A stretch of DNA of 42,239 nucleotides from positions 73,775 through 116,013 of the forward strand of contig JBNAUL010000003.1 of NCBI GenBank assembly GCA_049700835.1, given 5' to 3'. This DNA is from Candidatus Woesearchaeota archaeon. Its GTDB lineage: Archaea > Nanobdellota > Nanobdellia > Woesearchaeales > WAPY01. Positions 1 through 6,000 of the stretch are shown here, piece after piece. Position 1 is the stretch's first letter. Each line of letters starts with the position of its first letter. Made by a program: the position numbers.

Positions 1-3000
1 GCATACTTGTAATCAGCATATTTTTTTAAATATTCTTTGCACTTAAAACCATTTAAGTCCTTGCAGTCATACAATACAAAGCAAGGAACTTTGTCCTCGC
101 AACTTAGTATTGCTCCGTAATCAAGAATTCCATTGTAAAGCCCGTCTCCATTCCAATCAATCTTTTCTGTTTTAGAGCAGAACTCTACTATGCTGTTGAT
201 AGAGTTTCCTGATTCATAATCACTCAACTCGCAAACCTGCATGCACTCTCTCTTTGCATTCTCAATTTCTTGCAGGTTTGTACTCCCAGGATTTGGTTTT
301 GGAATTATTATTGTTTTGTAAAACACAGCAAGGAGTATTCCGCTTACTATTACTAACACAACTATGGTAAATATGATTCCAATGGTCATTTCCATTCCTT
401 TTTTTGATTTCATCGTTTCACCTTTGTTAAATCTTATTGAGTTTCAACTTTTATTGACTTTTTCCTTCTTTATAATAACCGTACCTTACAACCCAGTTTG
501 GCGAGTTTGGATAATCTTTTGGATCATTTGGAACAGGCAAATCGCAATCCCCATCAGGAGTATCATACATTAACTTTTCAAGCGAGTCAGGCCTGTGTTG
601 GCTTAAGATTTTCTTGCAAATCGCACCATTGTATTTATTTTCTTCTTCCTCAGAAATTAATAAGAAGCATGGTATTTTGTCTTGGCAAAAAATATATCTC
701 CCCTTATCATATTTTTCTCCTAAAGTGTTTTTATTTCCATCAAAATCTATCTGCACATATGATTTGCAGAAATCTATTATGCCGTCAATGTTTTTTGCGC
801 TATCCAATTTTGTTTTACACTTGTCTATTGCCTCATCAACTTTATTCTGAGCGAACCAATCTTCTTGAACCTTTGTCATTGTTCCTGTTCCACTCCTTGT
901 GAACCGAAAAAACAAACTCAAAACAACCAACGATATTATTAAGAGAACAAATAATCCAAAAATCATTTGCAAGGACTTATCATCGCCTTTTTTATTTTTT
1001 ATTAATCCTAAAAAGAATTTTTTCATAACACATACCTCTTTTTCCAGGGCTTGCTAGTTTTTTAAGCATTTGTTTTTTATTTGTTGTTAATTATCCTTAA
1101 CTATTCTTTTATCAATATTTAAATTTTTCTTTTTTTTGATTTAATATTTTATTAAAAATTTATAGGAAAGCATATAGTTTTTTCTTAAATAATTGTTTGA
1201 TTGCTATGATTTTATGCTAAACATTTCTACACTCTTTTAATTCATAAATTTTGTGCAAAAATAAAAAACAAGGATTTATAAAATAATCAAACCTATTATA
1301 AACTATTTTCACGCTTAAATACATTATTTATAATAAATCCAATCATGTGTCGAATATTTTTCCTTATAAATTTCTTCTGCAAGAGTCAGCTCTTCCTTTG
1401 TTAGCTCCTCTTTCTCTAAATCTGTTTTGAAGATTTTAGGAAAACTCTCTATTAATGACTTCTCAACATCTTTCTGCTCAATCCTGTTCTTTGTTTTTTC
1501 ATCTAATGAAGTTAGTCCTTTGTCTAATAATCTTGTGTTTATAAGAAACTTCTTGATTTCTTCCTTATTTAATGATATTAAAATGCTGAAGTTGAATAGA
1601 ACAACTCCTTTTTTCCTGAATTGAACTATTAATGCAATTCTCATTTTGTTGACCAGAACTTCATTCAGGGGTTTGAATTCTGCTTTTATATTATAATTTT
1701 CCAAGGTCTTTGAGATTAAACTGAAAATCCTTTCGTAAGAGCCTATTAGGTCAAGGGGAATGTTAATGTTAGAATCATTGACTATTAAAGAGCAGTTGAT
1801 TTCAGAGTTTGGTTCTTTGTAGAATGTATCTGCATTGTTTAATGTTCTACAAACATCAACATTGAATCTTTTGCAATTTTCAATATTTATCTCTTCATTT
1901 ATCCTCTTAAAAAATCCAAAAACAACTGCTGGTTTTTTGAAATAATTTATTCTCAATGTTGGTTTTATCTTTTCTTGTTCTAACAAATGCATTTGGCATT
2001 CATCCAATGCCAACTGCTCAAGAAAAGAGTTTGTTTTTGAAACAATCAACCTGAATTTTTCTTCTTTTGAATCGCTTATCTGCTCTTCAGCCATTTAACT
2101 GCCCTTTTTTGAGGTTATCTTTTTTAAGCAGTATTTTGCAGCAATTGATAACGGTTCTATCGCAGGGCTTGTCAATGGGGAATAAGCATTTTCAAAGTAT
2201 ATCAAATCCTTTAATCCTGAATCTCTTTTTATTGCCAAAGCAACAATATCTGCTCTCAAAGCAACATCCTCTTTGCTTATTATTTGAGCGCCTATTATTT
2301 TTTCATCGTAATCGCTTATTATTTTTACAGCGATTTCCTCTCCATTATAATATGGTTCCTTTGTCCTTGACCATATTAATGCAGATTCAAACTTGATTTT
2401 ATTTCTCTCTGCTTCATCTTCTGTTATCCCTACAGAAGCAATTTCCATTCCAAAAATCTTTGTTATAGAATTTATTATTTTTGGTTCAAAAATTATTTTT
2501 TTATCAGAAAGAGCATTGCTTGCTGCAATTTCAGATGTTTTCAATGCAATGTTTGCAAGCTGCATTGGCATTGTTTTCCCAGTTATTTTGTTTTTTATTT
2601 CAATGCAATCTCCACAGGCATAGACATCCTTTTCAGAGGTTTCAAGTTTTTCATCAACTATTATTCCAATGTTTGTTTTTATGTTTGTTTTTTTTACGAT
2701 GTTAATGTTTGGCACAACTCCTGCTGCAAGTATGAGCATATCAAAATCATAAACTCCTTTGTTGGTGAATAATCTTCCCTGCTCAACTCTAAGTATTTTT
2801 TCATTCAATTTAACCTCAACACAGTTTCTTTGCATTTCTTCAAGAATGATCTTTGACATATCGTCATCAAGCATTTGAGGCAGCACCCTGTTTTTCAATT
2901 CAATTATTTTTACCTCTAATTTTTTCTTGACAAGCGCTTCTGCGATTTCTAATCCAATGAAACCTGCGCCGATTATAAGAACTTTTCTCTTGCTGTTTTT

Positions 3001-6000
3001 AAGCATGAATTCAATTCTCTTTTCCAATGCTTCAAAATCCTCAAGGGTTTTAAGAGTTAGAAAATTGACATCCTTTAAACCTTCTATTTCAGGAACAAAA
3101 GCCCTGCTGCCACTGGCTATTATTAATTTATCGTACGTAATTTTTTCATTATTGTCTAATATAATGCTCTTTTCTTTTGTTCTCAATTCTTTTATTTCCC
3201 TTCCTAAAACAACCTTTATTTTGAGCTCTTCTAAGAACTCCTGCTTAAACTCAAAAATCTTTTCCTTCTTTATTTCTCCAGACAAAACATAAGGAAGAGC
3301 ACAAGGAGAATAACCTATGTTTTTTCTATTTTCTACTAATACGACTTCTGCATTTGGATTTATTTTTTTTGCTTGTACTGCAGCGTTTATTCCGCTAACT
3401 CCTGCTCCTAGGATTACTAATTTCATAATTGAATTTTTTTGTTTAATCTATTTGTTTTTCTTTATTTTTTTTTATTTGGTCAATTGCTTCCTTTACAAGC
3501 TGCATGTACATTAAACTTGGGCCTCCTCCCATCATAACAGCAACCCAGCATGCTTCGAGCATTTCTTCTTCTTTTAGCCCTAAGTCCAAGCAATTCTTGA
3601 CATGGAATGCTATGCAGTACTTGCATTGAGATTTAACAGCAAGAGCCAAAGCAATCAACTCCTTTGTTTTTTTATCCAAAGCTCCATCTTCTAATGTTTG
3701 TCCGATAAAATTGTGGAACAGAGCAAGGTCTTTTGGATTTTTGCTTCCAATGTATTCTAAATTCTTATTTATTTTATTTAGCATTTTATTAAAGTCCTCA
3801 GCTATTTTCTCACCTTTTTTATTTTTTTATTTTTTTATTTTTATTTGAATATTTTGTCCTTTATTTTTCTTTCTTTTTTATTGTTTCTATTACTTGCTCT
3901 GCACTCTTTAAATCATTTAATTCATTTTTATCTTTTAATTTCACTTTCATAATCCATCCCAGTCCATAAGGATCCTTATTTATTAACTCTGGATTATCAA
4001 AAACCTTTCCATTAACATCCACTATTTTTCCGCTTACAGGGCTCTTTAAGCTTCCAGTCCATTTTATTGCTTCCAAGGTTACATAATTCTCTCCTCTTTT
4101 TATCTCTTTGTTCTTTTCTGGCAAATCAACAAATACAAATTGCTTCACCATTTTTGCGCCATAATCATTTACTCCAATGACTGCAACATCATTTTCCAAC
4201 CTAACCCAAGAATAATCTTCATTGTATTTTAATGATTCTGGAAATTCAAATTCTCTAAACTTCATGCTCTCTCGCCTCCTGATTCAAGCTCCAAAAGATA
4301 GCAAGCTTGGTTTTAAAAGCATTATCAGCGCTAATGCAATCATCACTATTCCGCTAATGAATTTAAGTATTCTTCCTGTTCTTTCGCTTATCTTTGTGGC
4401 TCCAAGAGTTATAACAAAAATTAAAACTATGAGCAACAAAGGAATAACATAAAATATGTTGTATAAAACAAGATATAAATAATAAACGATTTTTGGAAGT
4501 TGTTTCAATGTTAGAATATTAGTATAAACTGCTGGAAAACCTGCTGTGCAAGCAAGTTCTATGAAATTAACAGAAACAGCAAGTATTATTGTCTGTAATA
4601 TTAATAGTAAAGTTATTCCTTCCTCTTTGACTGTTTTTACAATGCTCCTCATCTTTTCAATGAGTTTTGGTTTTTTGGAATCGTCTATTGTTAGTGAAAT
4701 TCCTTTTTTGTAGAAAAATGCATCTTTGACATTTACTATTCCTGCAAAGAGTGCTAACAATACAATAATAATTCTTACAAATTTTTGATATCTTAGGACC
4801 AAAAATAAGTTTAACCATGCTGCCATGAACATGAAATAAACAACTCCGGAAGCAATAACAAATATTAATCCAACAATAAGCATCTTCTTCCTTGATTTTG
4901 AATAAATTAATAAAGATAATAAAAAAGTCAATACCCAAAGAGCACAGGGGTTAAAACTGTCAAGTCCTGCAATAATTATTGTAAATATTGGCAACGATAT
5001 GCTTGAAATTTTAAAATCTCCAAGAACAGGTATTGTAACTATCTTTTCTGAACTGAGATTTTCTGATGTTTTTGTTTCGTTTGGCTTGCTGCATTCAAAG
5101 AAATTAAATTTTTTTTTGTCATAAGAATATATTGGAGCAATGTTTATGCTTATTTTTTGATTATAAGATTTTTCAACATTTGACAATGCATCTTCATAAG
5201 CATTGCAGTTAGTTGTGTATTCTTCAACAACATTCTTTATTTTTAATGCTATGCTGTCATTTTCCTTAACAAATCCAGAAATAAATTTATCACCAATAAA
5301 GGTGTTTGGAACTCCTTTTGGCTTTTGATTGTAAGCATTGCAGAATTTTTCCCATAAGTCATAGTTTTCTTGTTGAGTTACCTCAAAATAATAAACATTT
5401 ATTGGATATTCCTTGCTTAGTTTTTCCAAGTATGGTTTCTCAGCAGCACAATGTGGGCAATTGTAAGCTCCAAACATATAAACATTTATTTCCCTTGAAA
5501 AACTCTTATTGCTTGCAAAAACAGAGAGAGAATTGAGTAACATCATTAGCGTTAAAACAAAAACCATTGTTAAACTAAATAGTCCTATTATTTGCCTTTT
5601 TGTTTTTCCTTTCTTATTTTTTATATTAAACATAATGACTACCAGCAATTTTTATTTTTTTATTTTTGAATAGTGTATTCGTTATCATTTCAAAAGTTGA
5701 AACAGAATATAAATCTTTGTTTCAAAAATTGAAACATGCTTTAATTCCTTTATTTAACAAAATCCAGAAATTCATCTGAAAGATAAAGAATATTTTTTCC
5801 ATTTTTTCTTTCAACTCTTAAAACGTTTTTTTGAACAAGCTTTTTAATTGTTCTTGTAATTTTAACCCTGCTCAAATCAGTGTTCTTATTTAGTTCTGAC
5901 TGTTTTAGAATTCCACTATTTTTTATAAGTTCGTTAAGTACTATTCTCTCATCATGTTCAGCCAATTTCAGAAAAGCAGCGATTTCATTTTTGTTAGTTT

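Follow-up and report, generated by a model that had tools for sequence, protein, structure and literature searches.

A stand-alone GcvH-type lipoyl carrier in a conserved DPANN gene cluster and its possible place in an NADH-driven dithiol relay

Introduction

In Escherichia coli lpd suppressors, reportedly described by Feeney et al. in 2011 ('Repurposing lipoic acid...'), dihydrolipoyl-E2 is said to feed glutaredoxin. In that bypass, which evolved in the laboratory, a dihydrolipoyl group bound to protein can reportedly reduce disulfides of Trx-fold proteins in general. Bryk et al. in 2002 reportedly described a Mycobacterium tuberculosis NADH peroxidase made up of Lpd, DlaT(SucB), AhpD and AhpC. 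Relatives of CcdA and DsbD export reductant, and thioredoxin reductase (TrxR) and thioredoxin (Trx) are the usual electron donors for CcdA and for peroxiredoxin (Prx).

PMC12440151 also describes the mycobacterial Lpd-DlaT(SucB)-AhpD-AhpC peroxidase, together with an operon for GcvH-L, LplA2, SirTM and a macrodomain protein in Staphylococcus and Streptococcus. Further sources describe the CcdA-Etrx-MsrAB2 system of Streptococcus pneumoniae, in which CcdA works with extracytoplasmic thioredoxins (PMC3914529), and the LbpA/sHdr sulfur-oxidation system with its sLpl(AB) and LipS1/S2 (PMC6067878, PMC10332631).

Here we describe a gene cluster in a window of 42,239 nucleotides, the whole stretch of DNA analysed, from a Woesearchaeota archaeon. 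In contrast to the E. coli bypass, it is natural, conserved and dedicated. Its likeness to the M. tuberculosis system would be the reduction of an AhpD-type CxxC protein by protein-bound lipoamide, with NADH as the proposed donor via a flavoprotein disulfide reductase. There the carrier is the E2 of a dehydrogenase complex and the reductase is Lpd, whereas here the carrier is a free GcvH-type protein and the reductase belongs to the single-Cys CoADR/Nox class; moreover, AhpC is unlinked here, AhpD is optional, and no neighbour is as constant as the CcdA-like membrane partner. With the GcvH-L operon, the likeness is a second GcvH outside glycine cleavage that is encoded with its own ligase, and also a tie to oxidative-stress resistance via the lipoyl redox state, which for our locus is a prediction. 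However, a Pfam scan found no sirtuin or macrodomain match in any operon ORF here, the genome has no E2 acceptors, and the operon instead has genes for a flavoprotein reductase, for AhpD and for a membrane thiol relay. The membrane protein resembles CcdA/DsbD (S. pneumoniae, PMC3914529; T. thermophilus, 5vkv) in its six helices, one Cys per half and predicted electron flow to an external Trx fold. It differs in lacking a Pfam DsbD_TM or DsbD_2 match, in its N-terminally fused, CPHC-bearing Trx domain, and in its conserved cytoplasmic neighbour, a lipoyl protein where the known donor of CcdA/DsbD is thioredoxin. The LbpA/sHdr system shares GcvH-like lipoate-binding proteins in a non-classical role, dedicated lipoylation genes and, in some related loci, TusA/DsrE-family genes, but our genome has no sulfur transferases, a canonical LipA rather than LipS1/S2, and a carrier free of Cys.

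Results

The carrier gene is one of six co-directional genes

The cluster consists of six minus-strand genes, encoding a winged-helix (wHTH) membrane regulator, a Trx(CPHC)-CcdA-like membrane protein, GcvH, an AhpD-type (CMD) protein, a flavoprotein and an LplA paralog. The survey's finding had listed the last five as a co-directional set, and we found their ORFs in place, all on the minus strand; its motifs were likewise read from the sequence, as EAIKW in GcvH, CKYCIAFH in CMD, and CPHC 64-67 and NPC 233-235 in the membrane protein. The gaps from the membrane-protein gene through GcvH, CMD and the reductase to the LplA paralog are 18, 76, 16 and 0 bp, and the sixth gene (6262..5750) lies 101 bp upstream of the membrane-protein ORF in the same direction. 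Because it recurs in many families, this arrangement is far from chance.

The carrier belongs to a clade with a conserved neighbourhood

The carrier (3861..4265; 134 aa; PF01597 (GCV_H), 2.6e-37) contains no Cys and reaches 133 bits with NF002270 (cut-off 117). Its K68, within LEAIKWTGS, lines up with the lipoyl-lysine of solved GcvH structures. Across 26 sequences, K68, W69 and G71 do not vary, and the shared motif K-W-(S/T)-G contrasts with the ESVKSVSD of operon-encoded canonical GcvH. What is new is that, judged by sequence, these proteins form a distinct clade, "GcvH-B", with a neighbourhood conserved over many DPANN lineages. GCV_T occurs in 20 of 151 genomes of the order, none of which is among the 19 GcvH-B genomes, and the high-scoring canonical GcvH loci of the order sample (n=13) have a gcvT-gcvH-P-like layout.

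Of 27 dereplicated, eligible metagenome loci, 24 have a CcdA-like gene immediately upstream of GcvH-B, and in the order the two genes adjoin in 17 of 19 loci. A downstream reductase gene occurs in 14 of the 17 metagenome loci eligible for that count. The 15 reductase orthologs that score highest (>=438 bits among the 151 order genomes) all come from genomes with a GcvH-B locus, while six GcvH-B genomes, one-contig G085 among them, lack a top-tier reductase. AhpD is present in 6/17 eligible loci, and lipobox-type secreted CPHC proteins directly follow GcvH-B in relatives. Of the chain proposed earlier, the links of GcvH to the membrane protein and to the reductase are supported by gene order, with AhpD reduced to an optional accessory; the accompanying caveat, that the CcdA link was adjacency only, gives way to synteny conserved across lineages.

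The membrane partner is remotely related to CcdA

The membrane protein (4284..5648, minus strand) has 454 aa from a TTG start; an alternative ATG at 5633 gives 449 aa, which equals database protein P0001. It begins with an N-terminal anchor helix, followed by a Trx domain (residues ~50-150), a linker and a transmembrane domain (~219-445). NCBIfam GlrX_YruB matches residues 56-130 (2.8e-5), and the profile matches of the Trx domain include DsbA/ScsC-like chains. The distribution of K and R is consistent with the N-terminus inside and the Trx domain outside. C64, C67, D230, N233, P234, C235, E364, C367, T368, G370 and P372 are invariant in our family alignment (A1), with C235 and C367 at helix breaks of the six-helix domain.

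No Pfam family matched the protein at E<=0.01, and DsbD and CcdA models had no match at E<=1 to any of 35 family members. In an AF2 model (pLDDT 80.3), the best match to the membrane fold was CcdA 5vkv (VIA Z 8.9, rmsd 4.0 over 190 aligned residues; Foldseek E 0.12, prob 0.95), hhalign of the family against canonical CcdA gave E 0.0019, and at least 10 ORFs of relatives match both A1 and, above cut-off, PF02683. The earlier label "CcdA-type" therefore holds as a remote relationship, although not as Pfam membership: as modelled, the protein is a Trx/Grx-fold CPHC domain joined to a six-helix domain remotely related to CcdA, in a predicted topology. Because the family is widespread in the order even in the absence of GcvH (106/151 genomes, versus 35/151 with a strong GcvH) and its bacterial members stand alone, it has no general need of GcvH.

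The putative redox partners, the LplA paralog and the flanking genes

The CMD protein (3443..3784, minus strand; 113 aa; PF02627 (CMD), 1.8e-18) carries CKYCIAFH and is cytoplasmic, since it lacks a signal sequence. It exceeds the cut-off of TIGR00778 ahpD_dom (45.6 versus 27.8 bits), of the solved structures 5dik ('Alkyl hydroperoxide reductase AhpD', 4.1e-21) matches it best, and CxxCxxxH is kept in 4/4 full-length cluster-linked homologs. The flavoprotein (2095..3426, minus strand; 443 aa) matches Pyr_redox_2 (3.5e-57), Pyr_redox (1.8e-21) and Pyr_redox_dim (3.6e-11). It falls under every NCBIfam equivalog cut-off, including that of its best model, CoA-disulfide reductase (319 bits against 578.8). 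In the PDB it is matched best by CoA disulfide reductase 3kd9/4fx9 (8e-56), NoxA-3 6pfz and CoA-persulfide reductase 8a56, and its close relatives of solved structure include NADH oxidases and NADH peroxidase. C42, within YSPCALPY, corresponds to the CoADR-type active Cys and is present in 9 of 10 cluster-linked homologs, L111 being the exception. Homology places the protein among FAD/NAD(P)H disulfide oxidoreductases of the single-Cys CoADR/Nox/Npx class. We rejected an Lpd-type assignment, as lipoamide_DH reached only 119.6 bits over a partial region.

The operon LplA paralog (g00958; 1324..2094, minus strand; 256 aa; LplA-B_cat 4.3e-23) scores 82.8 bits with LplA-B_cat, compared with 171-186 bits in Pfam-scanned relatives. 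RRxTGGGAV has become CRTLNNADT and KISGNAQ has become MRIALIVQ. With the GGG motif and the catalytic Lys lost, it is most likely inactive as a ligase, and the earlier description "lipoate ligase-like" fits its family but most likely not its activity. This degenerate state is common to the closest metagenome relative, L127, only; the other 22 cluster-linked LplA proteins keep both motifs.

The regulator (5750..6262, minus strand; 170 aa) starts with two TM helices that flank a CxC (C41, C43) and ends in a DUF7343/MarR-like wHTH (DUF7343 4.1e-6, MarR 2.6e-4). The CxC is kept in >=80% of 30 aligned homologs, and a regulator homolog precedes the membrane gene in 7/80 genome loci and in many order and metagenome loci. 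Directly downstream of the operon, on the same strand, an ORF at 451..1026 encodes a protein with 6 Cys, a hydrophobic N-terminus and no Pfam match. A paralog (E 7e-21) at 3..413, also minus strand and cut by the window end, has 7 Cys and a hydrophobic N-terminus as well. The pair recurs downstream of the operon in L127 and is possibly tied to it.

The genome keeps lipoylation genes for a single lipoyl-domain protein

Profile searches of the genome (G000; 1.07 Mb, 4 contigs, 98.66% complete) gave one match to GCV_H and none to GCV_T, GDC-P, 2-oxoacid_dh or E1_dh. Biotin_lipoyl matched GcvH itself alone, weakly, and no second lipoyl-domain protein or acceptor was found. These searches agree with the earlier claim of an orphan GcvH without P or T protein, E1 or E2. 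LipA, AhpC-TSA and CMD have one match each and LplA-B_cat three, one of them weak. An LplB-LplA-LipA set lies away from the operon; the gene once labelled LipM scores instead as the large subunit of LplA and has LplB and LipA as neighbours. LipA is canonical (372 bits), with only 27 bits for LipS2. A phmmer search (E<=1e-3) found no TusA, YeeE, DUF169, DsrH or DGC homologs in the genome. One secreted ORF has 62 Cys in 803 aa, 7.7% versus 1.3% genome-wide. The habitat is hot springs.

The genome also encodes a TrxR-like protein (333 bits) and a thioredoxin, so the module is not the sole reductant and Prx need not depend on it. The Prx gene is unlinked to the operon, in a separate island with rubrerythrin, rubredoxin-flavin reductase and desulfoferrodoxin. 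The survey's proposal that the relay feeds Prx is weakened by these findings.

Discussion

With modest confidence, we favour an NADH-driven lipoyl-GcvH dithiol relay that feeds a membrane relay and AhpD, in which we infer each electron-transfer step and its direction. The locus would be one copy of a conserved DPANN module around a stand-alone GcvH-B, acting as a protein-bound dithiol/disulfide shuttle and not in glycine cleavage. NADH would reduce the FAD and Cys42 centre of the flavoprotein, which would pass electrons to the lipoyl disulfide on K68. Dihydrolipoyl-GcvH-B could then reduce the cytoplasmic face of the CcdA-like domain (C235/C367), and through it the protein's own extracytoplasmic CPHC domain or, in relatives, separate CPHC lipoproteins, which would keep the cysteines of Cys-rich secreted or surface proteins in the reduced state or in their correct pairs. 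The 62-Cys ORF and the two Cys-rich proteins adjoining the operon are possible substrates. In a second branch, dihydrolipoyl-GcvH-B may reduce the AhpD-type protein, which would act on peroxiredoxin or peroxides. The membrane regulator, with its outward CxC, probably controls the operon.

Several observations argue for this relay: lipoylation genes are kept in a small genome with a sole lipoyl-domain protein and none of its usual partners; the reductase and AhpD keep their active-site motifs; the CPHC and two membrane Cys are invariant in a protein whose best fold match is the electron transporter CcdA; and GcvH-B is in tight synteny with the CcdA-like and reductase genes, with secreted CPHC proteins in relatives. 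Lipoamide-AhpD-AhpC of M. tuberculosis and GcvH-L of S. aureus, as PMC12440151 presents them, offer a precedent by analogy. Counted against it are the TrxR-like and Trx genes, the unlinked Prx, the frequency of the membrane family without GcvH, the patchy AhpD, the GcvH-B genomes without a top-tier reductase, the L111 reductase without Cys42, the sub-threshold equivalog scores and the sulfur-gene insertions of some relatives. The redox-hub reading proposed earlier is accordingly upheld in its orphan GcvH, now with a separate clade and conserved synteny, and loses Prx dependence, a core AhpD and, most likely, an active ligase.

The same genes could form a co-regulated but unwired stress regulon, with the flavoprotein as NADH oxidase/peroxidase, Trx feeding the membrane protein, and GcvH-B serving an unrecognised lipoyl-dependent enzyme, or storing or donating lipoyl groups. 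In favour of this, the genome has TrxR and Trx, most occurrences of the membrane family lack GcvH, the reductase has NADH oxidases and NADH peroxidase as close solved relatives, the weak third LplA-B_cat protein and the degenerate LplA could hint at lipoyl transfer, and S. aureus GcvH-L is partly a lipoyl donor (PMC12440151). We nevertheless think this unlikely, given that no second acceptor was found in the genome, that the top-tier reductase orthogroup was seen in GcvH-B-locus genomes only, and that the ordered cross-lineage synteny, with such short gaps here, is tighter than a loose regulon usually shows. Other clusters point to sulfur handling: those of L028, L045, L060 and L112 contain TusA, YeeE-type Sulf_transp, DsrH-like, DGC or DUF169 genes, which, apart from DsrH (not found in L112), separate GcvH-B from the lipoylation genes, and several metagenome loci have DUF169 between the GcvH-B and reductase genes. 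The dithiol of an LbpA-like GcvH-B would then take up or reduce sulfur from persulfide, polysulfide or thiosulfate, the flavoprotein would reduce persulfide or polysulfide with NAD(P)H, and the module would serve sulfur assimilation or detoxification in the hot spring. The CoA-persulfide reductase among the flavoprotein's relatives and the hot-spring habitat fit, as does the published system of LbpA, TusA/DsrE and dedicated ligases (PMC6067878, 10.1101/2023.12.18.572138). Yet such genes are a minority (DUF169 in 2/17 eligible loci, TusA/YeeE in 1/19 order loci) and missing from this genome, lipoylation runs via canonical LipA, GcvH-B lacks Cys where a 2026 preprint mentions conserved LbpA cysteines, and the near-constant CcdA-like partner is left unexplained, so that we consider this quite improbable.

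Electrons might also flow in reverse, the outward CPHC oxidising secreted Cys pairs and passing electrons through the CcdA-like domain, lipoyl-GcvH-B and the flavoprotein to NAD+ or O2, which, in an organism that lacks a respiratory chain, would replace a quinone-dependent DsbB/VKOR. Oxidation of dihydrolipoamide with NAD+ is the normal reaction of E3 enzymes, CPHC is a DsbA-type motif in a domain matched by DsbA/ScsC-like chains, very Cys-rich secreted proteins are encoded, and some GcvH-B genomes lack the reductase. However, electrons would have to move uphill to pass from protein thiols to lipoamide (about -290 mV), and the AhpD partner suits a reducing role. CPHC also occurs in 1fo5, named THIOREDOXIN, so that the motif leaves direction unsettled, and CcdA/DsbD relatives are known reductant exporters (5vkv title); disulfide formation by this route seems very doubtful to us.

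Gene content, the missing glycine-cleavage and 2-oxoacid dehydrogenase partners, the clade, synteny, motifs, and predicted topology and fold are what we observe. For this archaeon, they point to lipoic acid acting as a shuttle of redox equivalents and not as a cofactor of metabolism.

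Operon layout and host genome

The six open reading frames of the operon all lie on the minus strand. They encode a membrane wHTH regulator (6262..5750, 170 aa), a membrane protein that joins a thioredoxin (Trx) domain to a CcdA-like domain (5648..4284, 454 aa when read from a TTG), a stand-alone GcvH of the clade that we call GcvH-B (4265..3861, 134 aa), an AhpD-type CMD protein (3784..3443, 113 aa), a flavoprotein reductase (3426..2095, 443 aa), and an LplA paralog (2094..1324, 256 aa), with intergenic gaps of 101, 18, 76, 16, and 0 bp from the regulator to the LplA copy. The database copy of the membrane protein (P0001) is 449 aa long, which is compatible with an ATG start at 5633. 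An Rfam scan of the window gave no RNA match inside the operon and only 5 tRNAs in total. Two DNA sequencing runs with matching sequence come from hot-spring metagenomes of two studies; no RNA run was among the matches listed.

The host genome (1.07 Mb, 4 contigs, 98.66% complete) encodes one GCV_H protein, the operon gene, which is also its sole Biotin_lipoyl match. Profile searches returned no GCV_T, GDC-P, 2-oxoacid_dh, or E1_dh, in agreement with the survey's finding of an orphan GcvH; with the T and P proteins both missing at this completeness, the protein does not belong to a functional glycine cleavage system. The searches also reproduced the counts of LplA-B_cat (3), LipA (1), AhpC-TSA (1), and CMD (1) proteins. 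The lipoylation pathway had been described as containing LipM, but the LplA-B_cat gene that adjoins LipA matches the LplA large subunit with 228.7 bits and is flanked by an LplB-like ORF. We therefore infer that the lipoylation set is LplB-LplA-LipA rather than LipM-LipA. The genome further encodes two proteins not mentioned in the survey: a thioredoxin (95.5 bits) and a TrxR-like protein, whose 333.4 bits fall short of the cut-off of 343.45.

Identity of GcvH-B

The operon GcvH matches PF01597 with 127.9 bits (cut-off 22.2; 2.6e-37) and NF002270 with 133.1 bits, above the cut-off of 117, while its score against TIGR00527 (108.9 bits) falls under the cut-off of 115.85. Its K68 aligns with the lipoyl-lysine of 1zko and 3a8i, two chains named Glycine cleavage system H protein, and is the predicted lipoyl-lysine at the hairpin position. 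No variation occurs at K68, W69, or G71 among 26 aligned GcvH-B sequences, and the residues around the lysine read LEA(V/I)KW(S/T)G in this class, as opposed to ESVKSVSD in the GcvH of canonical operons. The window protein contains no cysteine.

Conservation of the gene neighborhood

We examined the genomic contexts of these genes in three samples. In 80 genome loci picked by the membrane protein, a GcvH gene came next after the membrane gene in 8, all from archaeal MAGs, and the regulator preceded the membrane gene in 7; CMD, reductase, and LplA genes were found in 2, 1, and 4 loci. The idea that the membrane protein is always paired with GcvH was rejected, because 72 of the 80 loci, including all bacterial ones, have no GcvH nearby and their neighbors are inconsistent. 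In a set of 140 flanking ORFs, no neighbor recurred consistently at the bacterial loci.

The second sample consisted of 151 genomes of the same order, searched with GCV_H. Tallies over these genomes include the unpublished G132, and the tally with the reductase profile also includes G112; no locus of either was analyzed. A GCV_H match was present in 53 of the 151, and 36 places in 35 genomes scored at least 95 bits, of which 34 were analyzed, the genome of the window and G132 being left out. Thirteen loci (148-180 bits) had the canonical layout, with a GCV_T match adjacent in 11, and two others combined GcvH with LipA, LplB, LplA, and an Lpd-like reductase. The remaining 19 loci, from 18 genomes, formed a second class with scores of 95-127 bits, the window GcvH itself scoring 127. 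Here the membrane gene adjoined GcvH in 17 of 19 loci; 9 had the reductase, 9 a small CPHC protein, and 5 a CMD gene. These genes were usually followed by a LipA-like radical-SAM gene, LplA, and LplB. None of the 20 GCV_T-positive genomes among the 151 was one of the 18 second-class genomes or the genome of the window (0/19 GcvH-B genomes).

The third sample comprised 57 metagenome loci selected by the GcvH-B motif alone, which dereplication reduced to 44 GcvH clusters; six loci in which the GcvH ORF was not called were left out. The membrane gene lay immediately upstream in 24 of the 27 loci whose upstream sequence extended over 900 bp or more. Where at least 3 kb was available downstream (n=17), we found LplA in 15 loci, the reductase in 14, a LipA-like gene in 12, LplB in 10, CMD in 6, a secreted CPHC protein in 6, and DUF169 in 2. 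Altogether, the constant core of the cluster is the membrane relay, GcvH-B, and the lipoylation genes, frequently with the reductase, while the presence of AhpD, DUF169, TusA/YeeE/DsrH, and secreted CPHC proteins varies.

Four related archaeal loci (L028, L045, L060, and L112) carry sulfur-related genes: GcvH-B is followed by a secreted CPHC protein, TusA, a YeeE-type sulfur transporter, and a radical-SAM gene. DGC or DUF169 occurs only in L045 and L060, and a DsrH-like gene only in L028 and L045. The inserted genes precede LplA/LplB where the contig extends far enough; L028 stops at the radical-SAM gene. These four loci are a combination of a lipoyl protein with a sulfur relay outside the known sHdr systems.

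The membrane protein

A homolog search with the membrane protein yielded 790 archaeal and bacterial proteins at E<=1e-3, whose precomputed Pfam domains were confined to the Trx/Grx part. The window protein belongs to no Pfam family and has a weak Grx-like match (2.8e-5, residues 56-130). An alignment of 35 family members has C64, C67, D230, N233, P234, C235, E364, C367, T368, G370, and P372 as invariant residues; C64 and C67 frame a CPHC motif with P65 and H66, which reach at least 90% conservation. We rejected this motif as proof of a DsbA-like oxidase, since it is also found in thioredoxin chain 1fo5, and it does not settle the direction of electron flow. From the distribution of lysine and arginine, the N-terminus and a long loop (312-346) are predicted to lie inside and the Trx domain outside.

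The survey had called the membrane half CcdA-type. This name does not hold at the level of Pfam: the CcdA/DsbD_TM models (PF02683, PF13386) gave no match to the window protein at E<=0.01, neither DsbD_TM nor DsbD_2 matched any of the 35 aligned members at E<=1, and no canonical DsbD_TM (PF02683) was found in the host genome. The fold, the conserved cysteines, and remote-homology signals may, at modest scores, point to a distant relationship. In an AF2 model (pLDDT 80.3), an N-terminal helix and a Trx fold are joined through a linker to six long helices, two of which break, at 232-233 and 369, at the conserved C235 and C367. Foldseek gave no match to the model at E<=0.001, and its best membrane match was the electron transporter CcdA 5vkv (E 0.12, probability 0.95, TMt 0.50). 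The same structure was the best membrane match in VIA (190/224 residues, model range 216-454, rmsd 4.0) at a Z of 8.9, with the next membrane match at 8.2, values under about 13 being common for helical bundles. At least ten places in the genomes of the order match the family alignment (82-132 bits) and also exceed the PF02683 cut-off, at 27-32.5 bits. An hhalign comparison of the alignment with ten canonical CcdA sequences from the order extended over 196 columns, with E 0.0019 and a probability of 14.5%; C235 fell on the SPC cysteine, and C367 about 4 residues off. For the N-terminal domain, a search of solved structures with the alignment profile retrieved only chains of Trx, Grx, DsbA, or ScsC; the membrane part matched none. 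We read the membrane domain as probably a divergent member of the CcdA/DsbD superfamily that falls outside the Pfam family.

A complex prediction for the membrane domain (205-454) and GcvH-B, built from the alignments of both, gave ipSAE values of 0.09 and 0.11, below the mark of 0.32; obtained without controls, they are evidence neither for nor against an interaction.

The reductase

Pyr_redox_2, Pyr_redox, and Pyr_redox_dim are all present in the reductase, and its best NCBIfam model is CoA-disulfide reductase, although the scores are below cut-off (TIGR03385, 319.4 against 578.8; NF007123, 283.1 against 458). The closest solved chains are the CoA disulfide reductase 3kd9/4fx9 (8e-56), the NADH oxidase NoxA-3 (6pfz), a CoA-persulfide reductase, and an NADH peroxidase. 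C42 (YSPCALPY) aligns with the cysteine in HAPCGIPY of 3kd9, which we take to be the active site; of 10 cluster-linked homologs, 9 retain C42 and that of L111 does not. C42 is also the only cysteine in the N-terminal region, where an Lpd/E3 enzyme is expected to have a CxxxxC redox disulfide, and the Lpd model TIGR01350 matches residues 65-394 only, with 119.6 bits against 408.8. By sequence, the protein belongs to the single-Cys CoADR/Nox/Npx class and is at most a candidate CoADR. A conserved glutamate (E176) ends the second Rossmann strand, a position presumably compatible with NADH as donor. The FAD-binding GD motif reads ACGDC, a CxxC at residues 271-274, in the window protein and five others (6/10), and a C-terminal cysteine, C433, is also frequent among the aligned reductases.

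When the 151 genomes were searched with a profile built from the cluster-linked reductases, 15 had a top-tier match (at least 438 bits), and all 15 have a GcvH-B locus. Twelve of these loci are intact, and in-frame stops interrupt the GcvH match in G020, G074, and G140. Each of these three has a cluster of membrane gene, GcvH, and reductase (G020:C23:9307-12458, G074:C70:472674-475588, and G140:C45:21796-24910); in G020 the GcvH match contains 3 TGA and the reductase match 2 TGA. The stops could reflect decay, assembly errors, or, in G020, TGA recoding. Six GcvH-B genomes have no top-tier reductase: G129, whose contig is truncated, G085, a one-contig genome, and G019, G081, G093, and G138.

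AhpD-type and small Trx-like proteins

The CMD protein matches PF02627 (66.7 bits, 1.8e-18) and ahpD_dom (TIGR00778; 45.6 against a cut-off of 27.8), has no signal sequence, and carries the motif CKYCIAFH; CxxCxxxH is found in all 4 full-length cluster-linked homologs. Its best solved relative is the AhpD 5dik (4.1e-21). No AhpC partner linked to AhpD was found, the sole AhpC-TSA gene of the genome being on another contig, within an oxidative-stress island. This island, at about 261.2-263.7 kb of contig C1 (locus L007), encodes a rubrerythrin, a flavin reductase-rubredoxin fusion, a peroxiredoxin, and a desulfoferrodoxin in a row, which fits an oxygen-exposed anaerobe.

In relatives, GcvH-B is followed by Trx-like ORFs of about 150 aa with lipobox-like N-termini and CPHC or CPFC motifs. 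We considered and rejected these as cytoplasmic alternates of AhpD because of the lipobox-like signals and CPHC; the same features place them outside the cytoplasm, as paralogs of the Trx domain within the membrane protein.

The LplA copy and the regulator

The last gene of the operon had been described as lipoate ligase-like. The LplA-B_cat domain is indeed recognized (82.8 bits, 4.3e-23), but both motifs that we take to be catalytic in LplA, RRxxGGG and K-x-S-G with the lipoyl-AMP lysine, are lost: RRxTGGGAV has become CRTLNNADT (GGG replaced by NNA) and KISGNAQ has become MRIALIVQ (arginine in the lysine column). Only L127, the closest metagenome relative (87% GcvH identity), shares the degenerate motifs, and the other 22 cluster-linked LplA proteins, including those of L128 and L129, are intact. 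Because the loss is shared with L127 only and an intact LplB-LplA-LipA set is encoded elsewhere, the operon copy is probably a recent, inactive or repurposed paralog. The catalytic residues of LplA are quoted in part in PMC3904984.

The regulator has a weak DUF7343/MarR wHTH match. In 30 homologs, a CxC conserved to at least 80% separates two N-terminal helices, and the C-terminal part is a wHTH; a thiol-sensing role may be suggested.

Other features of the window

Directly downstream of the operon and co-directional with it are two Cys-rich paralogs (451..1026 and 3..413, minus strand) with hydrophobic N-termini, 6 and 7 cysteines, and a mutual E of 7e-21. The pair is also downstream of the operon in L127, and homologs were not found in the other related loci or in the rest of the genome. 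Possibly the two are surface proteins requiring disulfide handling. At the other end of the window, an ORF on the plus strand (39831..42239) runs off the end after at least 803 aa. Its N-terminus is signal-like, 62 of its residues are cysteines (7.7%, compared with 1.3% in the long ORFs of the genome), and it resembles a secreted protein of very high Cys content. The ORF accounts for the extreme GC and AT skew in the last 2 kb.

A 768-aa ORF at 7018..9324 (plus strand), with two Walker-type GPPGTGKT motifs in its translation, looks like a CDC48/VCP-type double AAA ATPase. Three of the five tRNAs are grouped at 26043-26590. Two tRNA matches are long, 143 nt at 22634..22776 (minus strand) and 105 nt at 26486..26590 (plus strand), which suggests intron-containing genes.

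A possible lipoate-based relay

The simplest reading of the conserved cluster, and the one at the center of the survey's finding, is that lipoyl-GcvH-B serves as a redox shuttle. The flavoprotein would pass electrons from NADH to the lipoyl group of GcvH-B, and the resulting dihydrolipoyl-GcvH-B would be re-oxidized by the membrane relay and, where these are present, also by AhpD or sulfur carriers. It is possible, if somewhat doubtful, that a lipoyl protein rather than thioredoxin is the dedicated cytoplasmic partner of a CcdA-type relay, such that GcvH-B, a dedicated NADH-dependent single-Cys flavoprotein, and the Trx-fused membrane protein make up a self-contained lipoate-based transmembrane reducing system in genome-reduced archaea, with AhpD, secreted CPHC lipoproteins, and sulfur-transfer proteins as interchangeable outputs.

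The membrane protein could alternatively be served by thioredoxin. The host genome encodes both a TrxR-like protein and a thioredoxin, the membrane family is common without GcvH in genomes of the order, and the reductase is missing from some GcvH-B genomes, all of which argues against a strict dependence on the lipoyl-GcvH-B module. Another alternative is that the module handles sulfur. This rival is a real one for loci with TusA/YeeE, but homologs of TusA, DsrH, YeeE, and DUF169 were not found in the genome of the window. The LbpA/sHdr system likewise differs, as it involves TusA/DsrE and LipS1/S2, whereas those homologs were not found here and LipA is canonical. The GcvH-L/SirTM operon includes genes for a sirtuin-like ADP-ribosyltransferase and a macrodomain, families matched by 0 of the 6 operon ORFs.

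Returning to the redox shuttle, the module is akin to the known lipoamide-AhpD peroxidase, GcvH-L, and CcdA-Trx relays; the lipoyl protein as donor to a CcdA-type relay would be the bolder reading. Precedents are the lipoamide-AhpD of M. tuberculosis and the GcvH-L of S. aureus, described in PMC12440151, and Borziak and colleagues (PMC3904984) state that Methanocellales retain lipoylation genes and tolerate oxygen. A literature search, whose coverage excluded most subscription journals and supplements, found no report linking CcdA/DsbD to lipoyl-GcvH or describing the cluster in DPANN.

GcvH-B genes are likely now miscounted as partial glycine cleavage, and the K-W-(S/T)-G motif together with synteny offers annotation and metabolic reconstruction a simple means of telling them apart from genuine glycine-cleavage GcvH. 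If the proposed shuttle is true, it would represent a third natural class of lipoyl-protein function, besides metabolism and sHdr sulfur oxidation. It would also give a reason why many anaerobic genome-reduced archaea retain costly lipoylation genes without a classical target, and a testable answer to how extracytoplasmic cysteines are kept up in DPANN that have no quinones or cytochromes.
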